Below, one piece after another: positions 4,625 through 29,139 of a stretch of 64,000 bases of DNA; position 1 is the stretch's first letter, and each line of letters begins with the position of its first letter. The translations under genes were made by a program, and so were the position numbers. The notes under the pieces were generated by a model. The model was given only the letters and a program-made list of their open reading frames with translations. It had not been told where the DNA came from and did no database searches. Source of the DNA: Vermamoeba vermiformis (lineage: Eukaryota); NCBI GenBank assembly GCA_045837725.1, contig JBEWZL010000041.1:1-64000 (forward strand), given 5' to 3'.

Positions 4625-5617
4625 CTACATGAGTTTCCATTCTGTGTATGCAACTAAGAAATTCTTTTTCAGCGGTTGGGGATAGTTTTCTATGTTTTGC
4701 AACACAGCACTCTTGTTTATTCGTGAGTCATTTAATAATAGCATTATTACTGCTTGCTGGTCTGCTAAACATGCGTTGTATAGTGCTTTGCCACCATTGG
4801 GTTCCAATTGTAATGTGCTGTCATTTAACAACTCTTGTACATGAGCAGGATCTCGTGCTTCCCTGCAGGCATATTCAAGATCTGCCAATGTTTGCGGCAT
4901 TTTTTTAATCTCAAGCAATCTTTGTATGATATTTGGGAAATCTCCAACCAGTGGCAAATCCAATGATCGAGCAAGGGGAATAACACTTGGTTGTTCTAAC
5001 AATAAAGTAATTCCTTCCTCCCAGTCACCTTGCACTGCCATTTGTAGTGCACATTCCACTGGGTAGCATCTACTGAGCTCACTTCCATACTCAACAATTG
5101 GAGCTGTTAAATCTATTTGATGATGATTTATGAGTGTTTTTAATTTGTTCAGTTGTTGTTCTTTCAAGGTTATTCGAAGTGTTTGGTTAAAATTGGCTGC
5201 TGGATCTAACAAATTGCTTTCGAGTATAAATTGAAAAATGTTATCGCTTCCATATCCTGCTGCATATGATAATATGGAAAGTCTCTCCGTTATACCATCA
5301 AAACAATCTTCTTCAATGGTGAGGTTTGGGTTGAAATTGAGGAATATTTTAATAATTGATAAATAATCTTCTTGAATTGCGCACTCCATAGCTAGTATTA
5401 AATATTTCTCGGTAACGTTACTTCGTTTCAATATTGTGTCTACTATCGTTGGATTATTGGATCGTGTATAATTAACCAGGAGTTCGTCATTATTGGAATA
5501 ATTATTACATATAATAAAATTAATAGCACGCCAATTGTAATACTTGTTTACATTTAAAAATACTAGAGGAGAAAACGGAAGAATAGTTTCCATCACATCC
5601 GCCGGTAGAATAGACAT
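4625..5617 (-). CDS. Intronless ankyrin-repeat protein with N-terminal F-box-like motif (330 aa)
   Basis: N-terminus MSILPADVMETILPFSPLVFLNVNKYY. Ankyrin-like units include LSYAAGYGSDNIFQFILE, ALQMAVQGDWEEGITLLLE and ALYNACLADQQAVIMLLLND. Confidence 0.75.
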   Translation of the reverse strand: MSILPADVMETILPFSPLVFLNVNKYYNWRAINFIICNNYSNNDELLVNYTRSNNPTIVDTILKRSNVTEKYLILAMECAIQEDYLSIIKIFLNFNPNLTIEEDCFDGITERLSILSYAAGYGSDNIFQFILESNLLDPAANFNQTLRITLKEQQLNKLKTLINHHQIDLTAPIVEYGSELSRCYPVECALQMAVQGDWEEGITLLLEQPSVIPLARSLDLPLVGDFPNIIQRLLEIKKMPQTLADLEYACREARDPAHVQELLNDSTLQLEPNGGKALYNACLADQQAVIMLLLNDSRINKSAVLQNIENYPQPLKKNFLVAYTEWKLM

Positions 5618-5730
5618 TTGTTGCCGTGTTGCTCTGTTGCTATTTAGTTGAAGAATAAATTAATTTAATTTTCGGCTATTACCCGCTGCCGCTTTTTCTT
5701 CCGATTTTTGTGATCTTGAAACACAACAAA

Positions 5731-6677
5731 ATGGAGAGCAATAAACAAGCAGAATATGATCGCAAAGATCGAAAGCGGCTAAATTCAACGATAAACAAAG
5801 TCGACAAATTCATAGCAAGTCTTTCAACGATCTTGATTTTTCAGTGCAACAATGTGGGCTCATTTCAATTGCAACGAATACGAAAATTGTTAAGAGGAGA
5901 AGCTGAAATCGTGCGTGGCAAAGTCGTAAGTAAATTGAAACGCTCGATCTTGTGAAACCTTTAAGAAAAATTAAATGTAACTCTGTATTATTGAGTAATG
6001 CATATTCATACAGCCGAAATGTTAGTATTCTTATTATTCGTAATTTTAAAATTAATTAATAATTTTAGACTCACCTACGAACGGCAATTCAACACCAACT
6101 TGCAGCACATCCAGAACTTAAACCGTTACTTAAGCATATTAAAGGCGAAGTAGGCCTCGTATTTACTAATATGGATATATGGTACATTAAGGATAAGCTA
6201 GAAGCTGAAGCAGTCCAATGTGAAGCGAAGTTGCATTCTCGCGCACCAACAGACATTATCGTTCCAATGGGCGAAACGGATCTAAACCCAGGTCAAACTG
6301 GCTATTTTGCAGCACTAAATATACCAACTAAAATAATGAAGGGCAAGATATATTTTATTCGCGACAATCTCTTGTTCAAGAAAGGCGATCTGATCACTGG
6401 ATCCGCTTACAACCTACTATGCAATTTGAAATTCAAACCAATCACGAAACGAGTAACAGTATCACATGCATATATTAATGGCGTTATAATTGATGAAAAA
6501 ACGCTCAATGAAGTGCCACAACGGCTCGACAAGTCGCTACACGATGGCATCCACTACGTCGCATCGATTTCAGTCGCAATAGGCGCAGCGAATAGGTCAT
6601 CGATGATGTATATACTTCATAGTGGATTGATGAACGTTAAAGCCGTGTCGATTGCACTAACGGATCCGTCCACCTGA
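5731..6677 (+). CDS. Divergent, C-terminally truncated ribosomal protein uL10/P0-like paralog 1 (267 aa)
   Basis: Exons 5731-5925 and 6069-6677. NNVGSFQLQRIRKLLRGEAEIVRGK, LKPLLKHIKGEVGLVFT, YFAALNIPTKIMKGKI and GIHYVASISVAIG align with eukaryotic P0. No acidic C-terminal tail. Confidence 0.85.
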
Positions 6678-6851
6678 TCCAAATAAATCCCGCGTTAATG
6701 ATCGAGTTAGAAAATGCATGATTTTACTCTAATTGATTAAAATATTTAATAGGTTCCAATTATGAGCCACGTGGCTGATTAGACAAAGTGTGATTCGCCC
6801 CTGGTCTCGAGAAAAAATCAGAAAAAAGGTTAGAATTTACGAATAATCACG

Positions 6852-7828
6852 ATGGAGAGCAACAAACAAGCAGAATATGATCGAAAAGATCGCGAGCGAT
6901 TGAAAAAAGCAATTGACAAAGTTGAAAAATTGATACAAAGTAATTCAACAATCCTTATTCTTCAATGTAGTTTAGTAAGCTCATTTCATCTCCAAAAAAT
7001 ACGAAAAATACTTAGAGGAGAAGCAGATATCGTTCGAGGCAAAGTCGTAAGTGACAGTTTTGTCGCGATCTAAATTAAAATTCAGATTCTGTTTTGAATT
7101 TAATGAAGCGTGGCTTTATTTAATTAATTAGAGATATAACTACGTTTTATTGTTCTTAAATATTCTCAGAAATTAATTAAATTTATTAGGCGCATTTACG
7201 AACGGCAATTCAACACCAACTTTCAGCACATCCAAAACTCAAACCGTTACTCCAATATATTCGAGGCGAAATAGGCCTATTATTCACTAATATGGACATA
7301 TTGTATATCAAGAAGAAGATAGAAAGTGAAATAACATTTACTGGAGCAAGATTTAATTCTCGTGCAACCAATGACATTATAATTCCTGAAGGGCTAACGA
7401 TTCTAAACGCAGGAGCCGATTACTCTTTTTCGATACTCAATATACCAACAAAGGTATTACGAGAAAAAATATATATTTGTAATGATTGTCTTCTCTACAA
7501 GAAAGGCGATCCGATAGACATGTACGGATTCAAACTTTTACGCGGTTTGATGATGAAACCGATCATTACACAAGTCAAAGTACTATACGCATATTACAAC
7601 GGACGTATAGACGATGAAAAAACCCTCAATGAAGCACAACAAAGGGTTGACAAGTCGTTACACGATGGCATCCAGAACGTTGCATCAATTTCAGTCGCAA
7701 TTGGCGCAGCGAATAAGTCATCAATGATGTATATACTTCATAGTGGATTAAGAAACGTACGAGCTGTGTCACTCGGAATGGAAGAGCCGCGTACCGAATT
7801 ATTTTCTAACCAATCCGTTGAAAAATAA
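6852..7828 (+). CDS. Divergent, truncated uL10/P0-like paralog 2 (277 aa)
   Basis: Exons 6852-7046 and 7190-7828. Same intron position and P0 motifs as paralog 1. Confidence 0.85.
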
Positions 7829-7976
7829 ATCTATAACCGCAAAATGCTCTTTCGATATTCAAAATAATCCTAATTTACCATTTACGCGCTTAAATTAGCA
7901 TCGTTTGTTGTGGCATGGAATTAGTTGAGAAAATAACTGCCTGAAAAAGATTTTACTTTTTTGACTCAATACCACA

Positions 7977-8920
7977 ATGGAGAACGATATCAACGCAGAA
8001 CTTGAACGAAAAGATAAAGAACGATTGGATGCAGCAATTAAGAAAATTGATAAATTGCTACCTAGTCTTTCAAATATTTTGATTATTCACTGCAGCGATA
8101 TTGGTTCATTTCAAATGCAAAAAATACGAAAATTATTAAGAGGAAAAGCTGAAATAGTGCGAGGCAAAGTCGTAAGTTTATAACGAATTCTGATCGAGCT
8201 CGAAATATTAAATTTTCTTTTAATTCGAAGACTTTTATCAAGCTCCTTTAAGCCCCTTACCCTATTAAATTTAATAATTTTATTTAAATATTTTAGTCAC
8301 ACCTACGAACGGCAATTCGACGCCACCTTTCAGCACATCCGGAACTTAAACCGTTACTCCAACACATTAAAGGCGAAATTGGCTTAGTATTTACTAATAT
8401 GGACGTATTCTATATTAAAAACAAGATCGAATCTGAAACAGTCGCCAGCGAAGCTAAACCAAAATCACATGCACCATGCGACATAATAATTCCTGGTGGA
8501 GAAACGGTTCTGGATCCGGCCAAGACAACATTTTTCCAAGCATTAGGCGTGAATACGAAGATTATGAAAGGCTTAATTTATATAACGAGCGATTACACGC
8601 TTTTCAAAAAGGGTGATCTGATCACTGCATCCGCTACTAAACTATTACAACTCTTGAATATGAAACCAATCACTAAACAAGTCAAAGTACTATACGCATA
8701 TGTTAATGGCACTATACTCGACGAAAAAATTCTTGGTGAAGCACAACAACAGCTCGACAAGTCGTTACACGATGGCATCCGAAACATTGCATCAATTTCA
8801 GTCGCAATAGGCGCAGCAAATAAGTCATCAATGATGTATATACTTCATAGTGGATTGAGAAACGTACGAGCTGTATCACTCGGAATGGAAGAGCCGCGTA
8901 CCGAAGAACTAAAACAATAA
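7977..8920 (+). CDS. Divergent, truncated uL10/P0-like paralog 3 (272 aa)
   Basis: Exons 7977-8171 and 8297-8920. LDPAKTTFFQALGVNTKIMKG and KKGDLITASATKLLQLLNMKP are closest to canonical P0. Confidence 0.88.
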
Positions 8921-9157
8921 TTGTTTCGTGCATCTGACTGTATTAAACTAACCATTATTCCTTTTATGTCATATGACTTAATTCCTCGCCAGAAATTTGG
9001 TCAGACTCCATAATGTCATTTCCTGCGGATTAGCAAACCCGAAGTACTCCGTACTTGCAAAAGAATGGAAGAAGCAGAGAATTGGAGTTTCATGTTAAAC
9101 GCCCTTTAAACCGATGAAAACATTGAACTGAAGGTAAACCAATGTTCAAAATTAATT

Positions 9158-10720
9158 TTATTTCTTTTCAAGTGCCATTTTTCTGCCGAGTTCGGTCAAC
9201 AAGCCTTCGTCGTCAAGAGCACCTAACTCGTGTAGCGTGTGAAGTTCAGATAGCAAGTTCGTCTCGTTAGGCGCATCAATGAAGTCAAAATCGAGGAAAT
9301 CGTTGACGCCTACAGCTTTCAAAATCAAAACTGCAAGAGTCAAGTTGACACGCTGGATCTCGAACACCGGAGATTCAACCAGTTCGTTCTGATACGCTGA
9401 GCCTGTATATAATCGATAACACTCGCCAGGTCCTTTACGACCAGCACGGCTGGCTCGCTGTATAGCCGTGGCCTTGCTGACGGGGGCAACGAGAAGTTCG
9501 TCTTTCTGAGTCAGCGAGTTGTAGACCTTGTGTTTGACGAAGCCTGAATCCACTACGTATGATATTCCGTCGATTAAAACTGATGACTCTGATGCACTGG
9601 CGGCAAGCACAACCTTTCTGGATCCATGCGGGGCTGGTTTGAATATATCGGGCTGCATTTCCAACGGCAGTAATGAGTGGATTGGCAAGATGGTGAGTTC
9701 GGGAATATTTTCTCCTAGAGCCTTTGCACGTTGCGCTAAACTCTGAGATGCTGTATCGACTTCTTTTTGATCAGCTAAGAAGACTAGAATATCACCTGGT
9801 GGCCGCGTCAAATGGATCTGAAGAACGGTGATCAATGACGCTTCAACCGGGTTCTCTTCTGGCTCTTTGGTATAAAATATATTTACAGGAAATGCTCTTC
9901 CAGGAATAGCGAACATTGGGCTCGAGTCGAAGTACTTTGAGAATTTTTCTGCTGCACCTGTCGTTGTGGATGTGATAATCAACTTCAAGTCTGTGCGCTT
10001 AGTACAAACTCGCTTCATCAGTCCGAACAATATATCCGTATTAATCGTACGCTCTTGTGCTTCATCAAGGATAACAACGCTGTACTGTTTGAGATCTGGA
10101 TCCACCAAAAATTCTCGGAGAAGCACTCTGTCAGTCACGTACTTGATCTTGGTTTGATCTGATGTGCAATCTTCTAATCGTATTGAATAGCCTACTTCTT
10201 CTCCAAGACGGCAGCCATATTCTTCGGCGACACGATTGGCTGATGACACCGCAGAGATACAACGAGGTTGCGTGCAAGCGATTTTGCCGAATGAAGTGTA
10301 GCCAGCCTCTGCCAAGTACTGTGTGAGCTGAGTGGTCTTGCCGGACCCAACTTCACCGAAAAGGATCAAGATCTGGTTCTCTTGAACGGCTTTGAGGAGG
10401 TCTTCTTTGAAGCGAAAGATTGGTAACGACTCCTGGTGTTCTTTAAATGATTTTTGTGGTGCTAATGGTTCTTCTTCTGGTTTTAAGATAGCTTTCAGAT
10501 GATTGACAAGTTGAAGAAGATTTTTTGAATATTGTTCTGAAAAATCGAATCCGTGCTCTACTAATGCTGTTTGGAACTGTTCTATCGCTGAATTTTGCTC
10601 AGCCAAATTAATAAGTAATTCTGCTTTGCTCTTGTCTCCAAAGCCCAACTGATTCTCCAGTTCTTCGAAGATCGCTGACACGAGAGACACCTGCCGAATC
10701 TTTTGGACTGTCTCCATCAT
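9158..10720 (-). CDS. Intronless Prp22/DHX8-derived DEAH-box helicase-like protein, internally deleted and C-terminally truncated (520 aa)
   Basis: DHX8-type N-terminus ([19 protein letters not shown]) is followed directly by the helicase core: [56 protein letters not shown]. It ends at [10 protein letters not shown]. Confidence 0.85.
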
Positions 10721-23483: not shown

Positions 23484-26400
23484 ATGCGCGTTGTAAATAT
23501 TTTATGCGTGTTGTTACTGGTACTGATCTTGGATCCAGCGTCCTGTCAGCCAGCAAAGAAAATATTAGTCTACTCGCAAGACAATTCTCCATTCAATGTC
23601 GCTCTCCCTGGTGCGCGCAAAGCCTTGGGTGACCAAGCTTTAGTGCGAAATTGGCATATGGACTTCAGCCAAGATGTCGGATCTTTTGTGGACAACACTC
23701 TCTTCCAATATGACGCCGTAGTGTTCTTACTCACTAATGGTGTTGCCCTCAATGCCGACCAAAGAGCTTCGTTGCAGCGATATATTAAGGCTGGTCGTGG
23801 ATTCGCTGGTATTTCGTCGGCCAATTTCAACAATGCTGATTGGGACTGGTATAAACAACTCATTGGTTCTAGCATTCCTGCCGACAAGCCCTTCCTTTCC
23901 CTCCAAAATGCGCAAGTTCGAGTGCCCGACAGAGTGCACCCCTCTACAAGAACTTTGCCGGAATATTGGCCTCGATCGGACATCTGGTAAGCGTTTTTAC
24001 TGAAAATTTCGGCGTAAAGACGCCTTAGTAGCGATGTTTTGAATTCCTCATTGCGATTACTTTACCAAATTACACCTATTTTTACGTATATTAGGAATTT
24101 TTTCTAATTTCAACCGACGTTGACGAATTTAGTTGAGATCTACCAACTTATTAATCGTTTACGCACTGTCCAACTCGCTTAAATGCTGACACTATATATT
24201 CAGGATTGATTATGATGTCTCTCCTCGCCTCAATGCTCACGTTTTAGCAATCGTAAATGAGAGATCGTACACTGGAGGCTCGATGGGCCCAGATCACCCA
24301 ATCGCTTGGTGCCAATTATACGACGGTGGTCGTTCATGGTAAGTCATAATAACAATGTTTTACTATCGCCTCGAATTGGGCCAATACGAAGGATCCGAAC
24401 ACAAGTCAGTAAGAAATTTCGAGTGTTTTTGGCTGACTCGTCTTTGTGTTCTACTTCGGATTAATATTAACCTTGATCTAAATAATGTTTGCATGCATTA
24501 AAGATTATAAAGAGGCAAACAATACCGATTTGGAAAATAAGATTTTAAAGAGTGATCGGATCTAATCGTATTTGAATAGGTACACTAGCGGAGGAGGTGT
24601 AGCTGCTGCTTGGACCGAGACTGAGTTTGTTGGTAAGTTTGCCGATAGTTTTTCGGCACTGACGCCGCGGTTCACTTGCGTAACGATACGTTGAGCAAAT
24701 TTGATATAGATCTCACTACAACATATCAGTTAGTTCACATTATTGAAACGTTTGTGTTTTTGGGGTCACTATGATATTGCAACACTGATTCATAATCAAA
24801 ATATGAAACTAATGGCTCCGTTTGGCAGGTCATGTCGTGCAAGGTATTTCTTGGGCTAGCGGAGAAAGCGCCGGTGACTGCACTGCTACCGTAAATGCTT
24901 ACTATGAAAAACGAGTGGTCGATACTACCGCTGAAATGGTAATTACGATGGAATTCCAGTTTACTGTCGAACCCAGAAACTCATCCGAACTTTTTCAAAT
25001 TTTAGCCTATGGAATTGGCTCCTACTCCTGATGGCCGCGTCTTATATATTGAAAGAGCTGGTAAGCTCAAGATCTACAAGCCTGACGCAGACACTACTGT
25101 TCTCGCCGGCAAGTTGGATGTAAACTACAACTTGGAAGATGGTCTTTTGGGCTTGGCACTTGACCCTAACTTCGCCACTAACAATTGGATCTACTTATAC
25201 TACACTCCTAATGGTCAAACTCCCGAAAATATTCTTTCTCGCTTCACTATGAACGGAGATCAGCTGGACATGGCTAGCGAAAAAGTTATGCTCCGCATTC
25301 CTACTCAACGATTGATGTGCTGCCACTCTTCGTAAGTCAAATATTAATATTTGAATACCTGAAAATTATTCGCAGCATGAATAAGCAATATTTAAACGAA
25401 AAGTTGGAACTTAGCTAATTCTCCGAATTTTCTAGCGGTCATTTGTTATTCGACCAAGCAGGACATCTCTTCATGACTATTGGTGATAACACTAGTCCTT
25501 ACGGTTCAGATGCATTCTCCCCCATTGATGAGCGTCCTGGTCGTTTCCCTGGTTACGATGCTCAAGGAACTGCCGCCAATACTAATGACTTGAGAGGAAA
25601 GATCTTGAGAATTAAGCCCGAATCCGATGGTACTTACAGCATTCCTCCTGGTAACTTATTCCCTGGTACGTACTGGATGCGGATGTGGCCGAAATGAACA
25701 AGTTTTAATCTTCATATTATTAGCTGATGGAAGCCAAGGCAAGCCCGAAATTTACATTATGGGTGTCCGTAGTCCTTTTCGTATGGCTATCGACCCTCTC
25801 GACAACACTTTGTACTGGGGTGAAGTCGGTCCTAACGCCGAAGCAAATCCACTTCGAGGTCCTACTGGTGTTGACGAAATTAACGTCGCCAGATCTGCTG
25901 GTAACCACGGCTGGCCTTATTGCATCGGAGATAACAAGCCTTACATCGATTACGACTTCGCTACTGGTGTATCTGGTAAACCTTACGACTGCAGCAATCC
26001 TGTTAACGACTCTCCGAACAACAATGGTGCTCGTAACTTGCCTCCTGCTCGCCCTGCTCTTATGTGGTACAATTACGGTTACTCAGCTGATTGGCCCGAA
26101 TTTACTGACGGCAAAGGTCGAACTTGTAAGTCAAGATCCGGATCTTCCTCTCGAATTGGTACTAATGATTTATTATAGCTATGGCTGGTTTCTTCTATCG
26201 TTACGATGCCAACTCTAAGGCTCCTTACAAGTTGCCTCAATATTTCGATAACACTTTGATCCACATGGAATGGTCGCGTAACTACTTGACTGAAATCAAG
26301 ATGGACTCCAACAACGCTCCTTTGTCTCTTTCTAGAATCTGGACTTGGACCGGCGATGCTACTAAGGAGTGGCACGCACCAATCGATATGGTGCTCCATC

Positions 26401-29139
26401 CTGACGGATCCATTTACATTGCTGAATGGGGTATTGATTTCCAAGGCAGTCAATCTCGCATTAGCAGACTCCGATACCAATTGCGAGGCCAAGATCCTGT
26501 TTGCGTCATCACCCCCTCTAAGAATGCTGGTGTTTTGCCTCTCGAAGTTACTTTCTCAGCTGAAGGATCTGTCGACTACATGGGCGGATCCGTTACCATG
26601 AAATGGGACTTCAATCTCGACGGCAATCCCGATGCTGAAGGTATCTCTGCTAAGCACACATTCAACACCCCTGGTATTCAAGTCGTCAAGTTGATTGTGA
26701 CCGACAGCGCTGGAAGAAGCTCCGGATGCACAGCCTCAATTATTGCCGGCAACGACCCTGCTAAGATTACTTTGGACATTCCTGTTCCTGGTAGCATCTT
26801 CAACTGGGGTGACACTATCCCTTACCGCGCACGCGTTGACGATCTTGAAGACGGTAGCACTGCGTAAGTCCCTTACAAAATTTTATCAATTTTATTTCCA
26901 CGAAGCTAACTCGACTATTTTAGCGCTAATCCTCCTACTATTGACTGCTCGAGCTTAAACGTTCTTCCTGGCCTCGGCCACGATCGTCACACTCACTCTG
27001 GTTTGACTTTCGAAGGTTGCAGCGGTCAAGTCGTTACCTCATCCGAAGGTCACGACACGAGTACTGACAACTTGTACTTCGTGCTCGACATTCACTACAC
27101 TGACCGTGGTGCTCCTAACAACGTTCCTAGTATCACCTCACGAGTTTCATTGGCCTTGCACCCCGCCATGACTTTGGCTGAGTACTTCACTAACTCCTCG
27201 GGCACTGCCTTGACGACTCAAGGTGACGGCCCTGGTCAACAAAAAGTCAACGACATTAACGACGGTGATTGGTTGATGTTCTCTGACTACAGTTTGCTCA
27301 ACATTGACACCGTTACTGTTCGTGCTTCATCTGAGAACCAAGGAACTGTTGAGTTCAGAATTGGATCTCCTACCGGTAGACTTCTTGGATCTGGTGAGTA
27401 ATCCACGCAATTTGGCTTACGAACAAGTATTAATATTATCGCTCTAGTCGCTGTTTCGAACACTGGTGCAAATACCTTCCAAGACTTCACTAGCCCAATT
27501 TCTGACTCGCATCAATACATCCAAATCGAATTCCCCTCGCAAACAACTATTTCCAAGTTGACCCTCAACTCTGGTGCCAACGATTACCCTGCTCGTCTTG
27601 GATTGATGATTGCTCGTAACATGGGCGAACCGAATCCTTATGGTGATCCCGTTGACTTTGTCGCTATTCAAGACGGCGCTGAAACTACGACTTTTGAATT
27701 CATTCCTCCTTTGAGCGACATTAAGCGTAAGTATTAGCAAAGCTTAATATTTCTGTACGATGATAGGGCTAATAATATTGTTAGAACTTCGTGTCTATCA
27801 ATTGGGTAGTGACGCTTCTCGCACTTGGGCCGTTCATGAAATTATTGCTCTCGACTCTGACGGCAATATGATCGATACTTCTGGCTGGAACTTGGCCTCG
27901 ACTTGCAACAACGACGGCAATGAGCTTAAGCAGGCCATTGACAACAACCAAGGCACCGCTTGGAGCTGCAAAGAGCCTATTGCCCCTGGTACTCAGAACT
28001 TGTTCTTGGTGTTCAAGGCCTCCAGTGGCAACAAAAACAACTTGATGACTTTGCACTGGTTCAGATTCAACGGCCGTGGTGTTGCTGGCACTTCAACTCT
28101 CGTCAAGGCCATTGACTGTGGTTTGACCGACGCGGAAAGCTTCACTGGTTCCGACTCCGTTGTTTACTCCGCTGACATGTACTACTCTGGCGGTGACACT
28201 GTCAAAGAAGTTGAATCGATTACGCGTACCACCGACGATCTCTTGTACGGCACTCAACGTGTTGGCAAGGAGTTCACTTACGCCATTCCACTTGACAATA
28301 ACCAACCGTACCAAATCACACTTAAATTTGCCGAGCTTGTCCACAACACTAGCGGCAAACGAGTATTTGATATCTATGGAGAAGACAGAATGATGGTGTC
28401 TCAGTTCGATATCGTCAAGTCCATTGGAGACAGATACACGGCCATCGATCTTGAGCGCACGGTAGTTCTTCACGACGGTACTCTCAATTTGAAGTTCTCG
28501 GCCTCAGTAGACCAAGCCAGCATTGGTGCCATCGTCGTCTCGAAGTTGTTGCAAAGCTCTCGTATCACACAGATCCCTGGCATGATCAAGGGCTCGTACT
28601 ACCGTGATGGTGGATCTGGTATTGGCTATGTCGACGCTACTCCTGGTAACAGCGGAGGTGGTTGCAGAGCTGATGACGTCGATCTTAAGTCGTTCAACAA
28701 CCCAGCGAGCAACTGTTACGTCACTGACATTGAAAGTGGCGAGTTCTTGCAGTACGATCTGGATGTCGGAGTTGATGACGTCTTCAACATCGAATTCCGA
28801 GTCTCTTCTAACGACAAGGATACCAAAACCTTCGAGATCTATTTGGACGATCAAGCTATCACCGACACTGTTCAGTTTAGCACTGATGGATCTGAATCCA
28901 ACTGGATCACCGTGCAAACTGAAACCAAGACCACTTTGAACCGTGGATACCACTTGCTTAGAGTTGTGGCTACTTCTTCAAACTGGAACTTCGACTCGAT
29001 GAACTTCATTTCTAAGAACGGATTGACTCCAAGCTCCTTGTCTCCGACCACGAACAACAACCAAAGCAGCCCTGCCGTATCACTATTGACTCAACTTAGC
29101 TATGGATTGGTTGCTTTGATCTTCGCGATGATGGTTTAA
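23484..29139 (+). CDS. Secreted, probably GPI-anchored multidomain protein: ThuA-like + glucose/sorbosone dehydrogenase (GSDH) propeller + PKD + CBM6 (with inserted F5/8C) + malectin + CBM6
   Basis: Signal peptide; ThuA-like YDAVVFLLT...DHPIAWCQLYDGGRSW; GSDH EDGLLGLALDPNF, CCH, DLRGKILRIKP, GNHGWPY; PKD WDFNLDG; malectin ITLKFAEL...GKRVFDI; CBM6 IESGEFLQY. Ends with an S/T linker and hydrophobic C-terminus. About ten GT-AG introns. Confidence 0.9.

Follow-up and report, generated by a model that had tools for sequence, protein, structure and literature searches.

Three tandem P0 (uL10) paralogues that keep both spine helices and lack the hinge and acidic tail in a 64-kb stretch of Vermamoeba vermiformis DNA

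The tails of the ribosomal P-stalk recruit translational GTPases, activate GCN2 and provide the docking site of ribosome-inactivating proteins. Canonical P0 (uL10, RPLP0/Rpp0) consists, in this order, of an rRNA-binding domain, an inserted domain II, spine helix I, a loop and spine helix II, and then enters a hinge and an acidic tail. Its nucleolar paralogue Mrt4/MRTO4, an ancient 60S assembly factor present throughout eukaryotes, has no P1/P2-binding helices, while bacterial uL10 is a stalk base that serves as an anchor only: its C-terminal helix holds dimers of the protein that bears the tails, and uL10 itself has no tail for binding factors. The number of tails that a ribosome needs, and the importance of P0's own tail, have to our knowledge been studied with engineered truncations only. 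Here we describe three tandem genes in a stretch of 64,000 nucleotides (contig JBEWZL010000041.1, positions 1 to 64,000, assembly GCA_045837725.1, labelled Vermamoeba vermiformis; the window hereafter), the products of which share the canonical order of domains, keep both spine helices and stop where the hinge and acidic tail would begin. We favour, with a probability of about one half (0.5), the reading that they are alternative stalk bases, which would anchor P1-P2 dimers without contributing a tail themselves and would be the natural equivalent of an engineered P0 from which the C-terminal domain has been removed.

The engineered forms are described in two papers. Silkworm P0 without its 55 C-terminal residues, together with P1-P2, is active in eEF-2 GTPase and polyphenylalanine (poly-Phe) synthesis assays (PMC3616719), and a yeast P0 shortened by 21 C-terminal residues is taken into polysomes and substitutes for P0 only with P1/P2 present (PMC3794597). 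Both the silkworm form (PMC3616719) and the yeast form P0-C (PMC3794597) bind two P1-P2 dimers and support factor-dependent GTPase activity and poly-Phe synthesis, the yeast form needing P1/P2. In silkworm P0, the P1-P2 dimers are held on helix I by F215, G218, V222 and L225 and on helix II by I241, G244, L248 and I251, and a conserved YPT loop (231-233) separates the two helices (PMC3616719). The proteins of the window end at nearly the same point as the silkworm construct (PMC3616719), past helix II and before the hinge. The engineered forms are laboratory versions of an otherwise unaltered P0, whereas the paralogues are natural, about 40% identical to canonical P0 and further changed in the loop, in domain II and in the rRNA-contact turn.

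The three genes (g1, g2 and g3) lie head to tail on the plus strand at 5731-8920 and have the same architecture of two exons each, with products of 267, 277 and 272 amino acids. Exon 1 is 195 nt long in all three and is followed by a single phase-0 GT..AG intron (143, 143 and 125 nt) and by an exon 2 of 202, 212 and 207 codons; the position of the intron is consistent with the nearest canonical P0 genes. An earlier note on this DNA had described a three-gene tandem with these product lengths, and the gene models agree with it. The peptides that it quoted are found in the translations of the open reading frames (ORFs), GIRNIASISVAIG in g3 and SGLRNVRAVSL in g2 and g3. The spacers measure 174 nt (g1-g2) and 148 nt (g2-g3), and 237 nt separate the stop of g3 from that of a convergent helicase gene; poly(A)-type hexamers (AATAAA or ATTAAA/AATAAT) stand, as motifs only, at each of the three stops or at most 25 nt beyond. 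In the features given below, the contigs called X6 carry another organism label and are 95-99% alike to the window, and model confidence is the predicted local distance difference test score (pLDDT).

5731..5925, plus strand: g1 exon 1, 65 codons from the ATG to the GT donor, N-terminal half of the uL10/P0 rRNA-binding domain (Ribosomal_L10, 23.9 bits); joint 5925/6069 present in an intron-less X6 contig
5926..6068, plus strand: g1 intron, 143 nt, GTAAGT..TAG, phase 0
6069..6677, plus strand: g1 exon 2, 202 codons and TGA; by alignment the remaining part of domain I, domain II, spine helices I and II and a 5-residue stub (RL10P_insert, 50 bits)
6682..6687, plus strand: AATAAA hexamer 5 nt past the g1 stop, motif only
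6852..7046, plus strand: g2 exon 1, 65 codons (Ribosomal_L10, 22.6 bits); joint 7046/7190 present in two X6 contigs
7047..7189, plus strand: g2 intron, 143 nt, GT..AG, phase 0
7190..7828, plus strand: g2 exon 2, 212 codons and TAA, with the most divergent domain II of the three (RL10P_insert, 28.3 bits); an AATAAA at 7824 overlaps the stop
7977..8171, plus strand: g3 exon 1, 65 codons (Ribosomal_L10, 26.1 bits); a 483-nt X6 contig joins 7965-8170 to 8300-8572
8172..8296, plus strand: g3 intron, 125 nt, GT..AG, phase 0
8297..8920, plus strand: g3 exon 2, 207 codons and TAA (RL10P_insert, 65.1 bits; P0 in PDB, E 3.4e-39; AlphaFold2 model, mean pLDDT 86.8)
8723..8809, plus strand: g3 spine helix I, exon-2 residues 143-171, aligned to human P0 201-229, a DSSP helix in the model; P1-P2 contact positions, as defined in PMC3616719, read L, G, I, I
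8810..8830, plus strand: g3 inter-helix loop, AAN where the canonical motif is YPT
8831..8878, plus strand: g3 spine helix II, exon-2 residues 179-194, aligned to human 237-252; contact positions L, G, V, V
8879..8917, plus strand: g3 C-terminal stub, 13 residues at the point where canonical P0 enters the hinge and acidic tail; pLDDT 58 and 51 in the final two 10-residue blocks, weakly conserved among family members

Derivation of the three proteins from P0 rather than from Mrt4, as the earlier note had proposed, is supported by sequence and fold searches, by the tree and by the presence of the two helices that bind P1-P2. The first exons match Pfam Ribosomal_L10 (PF00466) around its cut-off of 22.8 bits, g2 lying 0.2 bits short, and these scores come from half-domains because the intron splits the domain; the second exons match RL10P_insert (PF17777, domain II; cut-off 29.1 bits), g2 again falling slightly short. 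When g3 exon 2 is compared with PDB sequences by phmmer, its residues 3-196 (194 residues) align without large gaps to residues 61-254 of human and chicken P0 (316-317 residues in full; E 3.4e-39 to 4.7e-38), with E values of 3.4e-39 to 1.6e-37 for P0/uL10 of chicken, mouse, human and rabbit and of about 1e-35 to 1e-32 for fungal P0 (yeast residues 59-253 of 312, E 2.2e-32), whereas homologues of Mrt4 are matched at E 1.7e-6 and 9e-4 only, over residues 18-134 (about 117). Since the alignment spans to human residue 254, the products contain the rRNA-binding domain together with domain II and the two spine helices. The predicted structure is that of exon 2 of g3 alone, not of a full-length protein, and was made from a 73-row alignment. 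A fold search with this model against PDB chains returns P0/L10 at all of ranks 1-28 (24-43% identity) and a first Mrt4 chain at rank 29 (22%), and a search of the ESM Atlas returns generic L10/P0 clusters only. The paralogues are 36-43% identical to solved P0 chains and 20-25% identical to the Mrt4 chains among the fold matches. Like Mrt4, they are related to P0, have an rRNA-binding domain and a domain II and lack an acidic tail; unlike Mrt4, they have the two helices, and in the tree a tailed P0 is their neighbour.

The lack of the hinge and acidic tail, the central claim of the earlier note, is borne out. By alignment, the products end 5-15 residues past helix II, the last part aligned to P0, and the three genes give no match to Pfam Ribosomal_60s (PF00428, hinge and acidic tail). 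Two sets of tail patterns, the second including the GGLFGDD-type tail of the nearest canonical P0s, find no match in the six frames of the 64 kb. Further, tblastn with two full-length tailed P0s (P0008 and P0009) against the window matches only the three genes and nothing past query residue 268 at E<1, and none of the plus-strand frames of 5700-9200 holds a 12-residue window with at least six D/E. The tail-less relatives P0001-P0004 and P0006, which come from other genomes, end 10-18 residues beyond the same helix. Among the nearest canonical P0s are the ORF products P0289, P0291 and P0292 (250-251 aa, on contigs of 1.4-29 kb), which start at a Met that is the second residue after the intron position of the paralogues and carry helix II, hinge and acidic tail in one uninterrupted ORF. 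Since the parental gene type thus has tail and spine in the same exon, the paralogues lost the tail by truncation, and a missed exon is not the cause.

It is the part of P0 that carries the P1-P2 sites that these proteins have kept best. Silkworm and human P0 numbering coincide in the PDB alignment used for mapping, and the eight contact positions (-5, -2, +2 and +5 in each helix) are hydrophobic or Gly in all six tail-less proteins examined, reading L, G, V/I, I on helix I and L/I, G, V, V on helix II in 6/6; at six of these positions the whole eight-member family has one and the same residue. In the g3 model, the helices fall at exon-2 residues 143-171 and 179-194, the expected places. When the paralogues are compared with one another, conservation is highest in the spine (86% identity) and lowest in domain II (50%), the reverse of canonical P0s (35% and 53%). 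When scored over 38 non-tail columns that are conserved in at least 85% of 64 canonical P0s, g1 and g3 keep 28 each and g2 keeps 24, and R45, L48, R49, G57 and K58 of the rRNA-binding domain (P0009 numbering) are kept in all three. The helices are thus both kept and the most constrained part of the protein, and it is for this reason that we favour alternative stalk bases.

Members of the family occur outside this contig. An exhaustive HMMER search of 1.84 billion representatives returns two close clusters only, P0001 (95%) and P0002 (60%), followed by tailed canonical P0s at up to 42%; of the tail-less database relatives, P0001 is 95% identical to g3, and P0002, P0003, P0004 and P0006 are 53-59% identical. 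The tree holds 72 rows, namely the three spliced window proteins, five tail-less database proteins and 64 canonical P0s that were picked as full-length, Met-started and acid-tailed from 148 non-family matches, the other 84 being left out, as was P0005, which lies wholly within P0004. Neither Mrt4 nor an archaeal outgroup is among the rows; the root was placed at the midpoint, and the method was a 'quick' one. The eight tail-less rows form one clade in it, with a value of 100 in the Shimodaira-Hasegawa-like approximate likelihood ratio test (SH-aLRT), and their sister is the tailed P0008 (SH-aLRT 92, not starred). The clade sits on a long stem beside P0008 and is thus a lineage-specific offshoot of P0, the early evolution of which was strongly accelerated. 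P0008 and its 88-92% relatives come from contigs of about 1 kb, which are probably transcripts, and have N-terminal features in common with the paralogues; the best named match of P0008 is from Balamuthia (59%), a weak hint at most of kinship with amoebozoans. Related loci were sought among metagenome contigs (256 pattern matches) and viral contigs (232), and none was confirmed, which leaves the relatives without genomic context and a viral origin without support.

The three genes are under purifying selection. The copies are 64-65% identical in pairs, with ratios of nonsynonymous to synonymous rates (dN/dS) of 0.33, 0.29 and 0.38 at dS 0.71-0.83. Moreover, the 17 listed differences between the window and the X6 contigs fall in 16 codons, 11 of them changed synonymously and 5 not (binomial p 2.9e-4 against a rough neutral expectation of 25%), a test that used the listed differences only, the X6 contigs carrying a few more. 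These contigs represent portions of each of the three genes with the introns missing, with joints at 5925/6069, 7046/7190 (two contigs) and about 8170/8300, and have no depth on either flanking gene. None of the data sets listed as containing the stretch is recorded as RNA, and while X6 being RNA is a guess, the contigs themselves are intron-less, and on that basis we read them as spliced transcripts in a close relative. Small shares of the stretch also occur in metagenomes from water, aquifers and soil, which play no part in the argument. The earlier note had counted a lack of transcripts and protein as a ground for refutation; the intron-less contigs speak for transcription in the relative, and the 3' ends of the genes stay uncovered. 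In the RNA-seq runs X13-X15 (2026), which bear the same species label as the best DNA matches, a label that may not fit the organism of the window, no reads fall on 5000-9800, a span of five genes including both flanks, and this silence carries no weight as to expression.

A few further observations concern the array itself. Over their last 45 codons, g2 and g3 hardly differ (7700-7800 and 8790-8900; proportions of synonymous and nonsynonymous differences, pS 0.16 and pN 0.02), which points to gene conversion. A similar sign is seen in the JGI relatives P0002 and P0003, with identical first 63 residues, an identical 40-residue block before helix II and a strongly different domain II. One 272-nt X6 contig across the g1 intron joint also lacks 48 nt of g1 exon 2 (6151-6198), an in-frame skip of 16 codons covering the end of the GEVGLVFTN motif; its TA..GC ends are not those of a canonical intron, and conceivable sources are an allelic or paralogous copy in the relative, non-canonical splicing and faulty assembly.

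How might such proteins work? What the analysis shows is the gene structure, the descent from P0, the lack of a tail, purifying selection, transcripts in a close relative and a conserved pattern of P1-P2 contacts; what we infer is binding to the ribosome or rRNA, binding of P1-P2 and any consequence for function. In the mechanism that we propose, lineage-specific duplicates of P0 (uL10), expressed and selectively maintained, have lost the flexible hinge and the acidic, factor-recruiting tail by a truncation inside the last exon. The paralogues would compete with canonical P0 for the 60S GTPase-associated centre, and each would anchor two P1-P2 dimers through the kept spine helices. The resulting stalk would have four tails, not five, on a base with an altered domain II, inter-helix loop and rRNA-contact turn. 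They would thereby act like bacterial uL10, an anchor without a tail of its own, although the latter is a distant relative that has no inserted domain II and binds bL12, not P1-P2. Toxin-resistant stalks, which the earlier note had suggested, do not follow from such an arrangement, because four tails of the same kind would remain for ribosome-inactivating proteins if the P1-P2 dimers bind.

Several observations weigh against alternative stalk bases. The YPT loop is lost, its place being taken by AAN in the proteins of the window and by NPN in the JGI relatives; over the six tail-less proteins, Y has become A or N, P is kept in three and T has become N in all, while among the 64 canonical P0s Y is present in 26, P in 52 and T in 40. 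Mutation of YPT in silkworm P0 lowers poly-Phe synthesis to one third and leaves P1-P2 binding unaffected (PMC3616719). Domain II is conserved better than any other part in canonical P0 and less than any other part in the paralogues. Eight of the 38 columns are changed in all three copies, including the N of the GKN turn, the N of GNVGF and both the F and the Y of the domain II motif PFxYG. The changed GKN motif of the paralogues presumably corresponds to the rRNA-contact turn. The neighbourhood of the GKN turn contacts rRNA (PMC2753163). The stem of the tail-less clade measures 1.23 changes per column, while end branches have a median of 0.71, and such a length agrees with an altered function no less readily than with a conserved one. 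Together with the tandem triplication and the missing tail (no Ribosomal_60s), the replaced loop, the replaced GKN and PFxYG residues, the poorly conserved domain II and this stem set the paralogues apart from canonical P0. The 3' thirds of the genes are uncovered by X6, with depth 0 in the bins 6449-6770, 7576-7897 and 8703-9024. Finally, the DNA surveyed is the 64-kb window and not a whole genome, and any canonical P0, Mrt4, P1 or P2 of the organism would be beyond its view.

Some of these points would also suit placeholders of the Mrt4 kind that arose a second time, with the tail-less copy acting as an assembly factor or brake at the P0 site, either of pre-60S particles or of some of the mature subunits, and later being swapped for canonical P0. 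We hold this to be unlikely. The long stem suggests a new function, and the alignment shows a basic cluster close to the N terminus. The paralogues have GE[VI]GL, as does the canonical P0008 of their lineage, and not the commoner GNVGF, and their GKN turn is changed; such changes could weaken rRNA binding, as in Mrt4-G68D (PMC2753163). Moreover, yeast P0 without its whole C-terminal domain acts like Mrt4 and partly rescues an mrt4 deletion, but that construct is missing 132 residues including both spine helices, whereas deletions that keep the helices and remove the tail only act like P0 (PMC3794597). The paralogues keep both helices as their most conserved part, of which a mere placeholder has no need, and are far nearer to P0 than to Mrt4 in sequence and fold. 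The same concentration of constraint on the spine, with 86% identity among the copies and 23 invariant positions in residues 157-194 across eight members, would also fit a partner of P1-P2, or of another dimer using the same helices, that works off the ribosome as a store, chaperone or sink that controls the size of the free P1/P2 pool, or in some other moonlighting role. The changed conserved residues of domains I and II agree with it, but the majority of the conserved basic residues and glycines in the rRNA-binding domain (R45, R49, G57 and K58) are kept, and a free pool of P0 or its truncated forms was not observed in yeast (PMC3794597); we regard such a role as distinctly improbable.

Two more prosaic accounts can be set beside the alternative stalk bases. 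Recent tandem copies that lost the tail by a premature stop and drift without function might show the gene-conversion signs seen in the array (pS 0.16 over the last 45 codons of g2 and g3) and a g2 that scores slightly below two Pfam cut-offs. Such decay is nonetheless highly improbable in view of three intact frames, dN/dS of 0.29-0.38 at dS 0.7-0.8, the synonymous excess against the close relative (11 of 16 changed codons), the spliced transcripts and tail-less members in other genomes that share the same end at 53-59% identity. Further, an unrecognised exon might supply the hinge and acidic tail, and the uncovered 3' ends of the transcripts (depth 0 in three bins) leave some room for it. 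Against such an annotation artefact stand the six frames of the 64 kb without a tail-like or acid-rich coding stretch, the start of the next gene 148-174 nt past the stop or the end of the convergent gene at 237 nt, the poly(A)-type hexamers at each stop, the absence of a spine-tail intron in the parental gene type and the five relatives that end at the same place. The spliced downstream tail exon that the earlier note had considered was not found in the window searches; on the sequence evidence a hidden exon of this kind is very unlikely, and we give the artefact almost no weight.

Tail-less relatives of P0 known so far are Mrt4, which is without the helices, and laboratory truncations, and a natural form that keeps the helices would appear to be a new variety. 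A search of the full-text literature, with subscription journals and supplements outside its scope, brought up no natural P0 paralogue without the tail but with the P1/P2 helices. The finding bears directly on stalk heterogeneity, with a function that we infer from sequence. If natural, conserved, expressed and multi-copy tail-less P0s with P1-P2 sites are what these genes encode, they would offer a ready test of stalk heterogeneity and of 'specialised ribosomes', and the step from P0 to a tail-less relative, which once anciently gave Mrt4, would be repeatable by a different way. If the proteins are instead competitors or a P1-P2 sink, they would represent a new kind of regulator of stalk assembly. 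A bolder and doubtful extension, which we put forward only tentatively, is that they form an undescribed third class of the P0 family beside P0 and Mrt4, a tail-less, P1-P2-carrying stalk base with which a protist lineage, holding several diversifying copies, builds condition- or stage-specific ribosomes, factor recruitment being tuned by the number of tails and the variable domain II.

The window is eukaryotic, with a G+C content of 33-47% in 2-kb windows, and Rfam and tRNA scans of its 64 kb give no match. Downstream of the array, a convergent gene on the minus strand (9158-10720) encodes a DHX8/PRP22-like DEAH helicase of 520 aa that ends just past the start of the HA2/winged-helix part and shares no more than 64% identity with any protein from a named organism. 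Homologues of full length (879 and 888 aa) match it over their residues of about 218-648 only, and their C-terminal 230 residues find no further match in the 64 kb; the 520-aa protein has a unique N-terminal stretch of 90 residues and no S1 domain. A relative, P0165, is 93% identical, also 520 aa long and has the same end, and the tail-less P0 array therefore has beside it another paralogue of a core machine that is conserved and truncated at the C terminus. The tail-less P0s may be part of a wider habit of this genome of keeping such truncated paralogues. Seven further ORFs of more than 200 aa in the window have no Pfam match. The divergent upstream neighbour of the array (4625-5617, minus strand) is an intron-less gene for a 330-aa ankyrin-repeat protein (Ank_2, E 1.6e-8), and farther along the plus strand lie an ORF with a PKD domain (26169-26867) and another with Malectin plus CBM6/CBM35 carbohydrate-binding modules (27748-29139).

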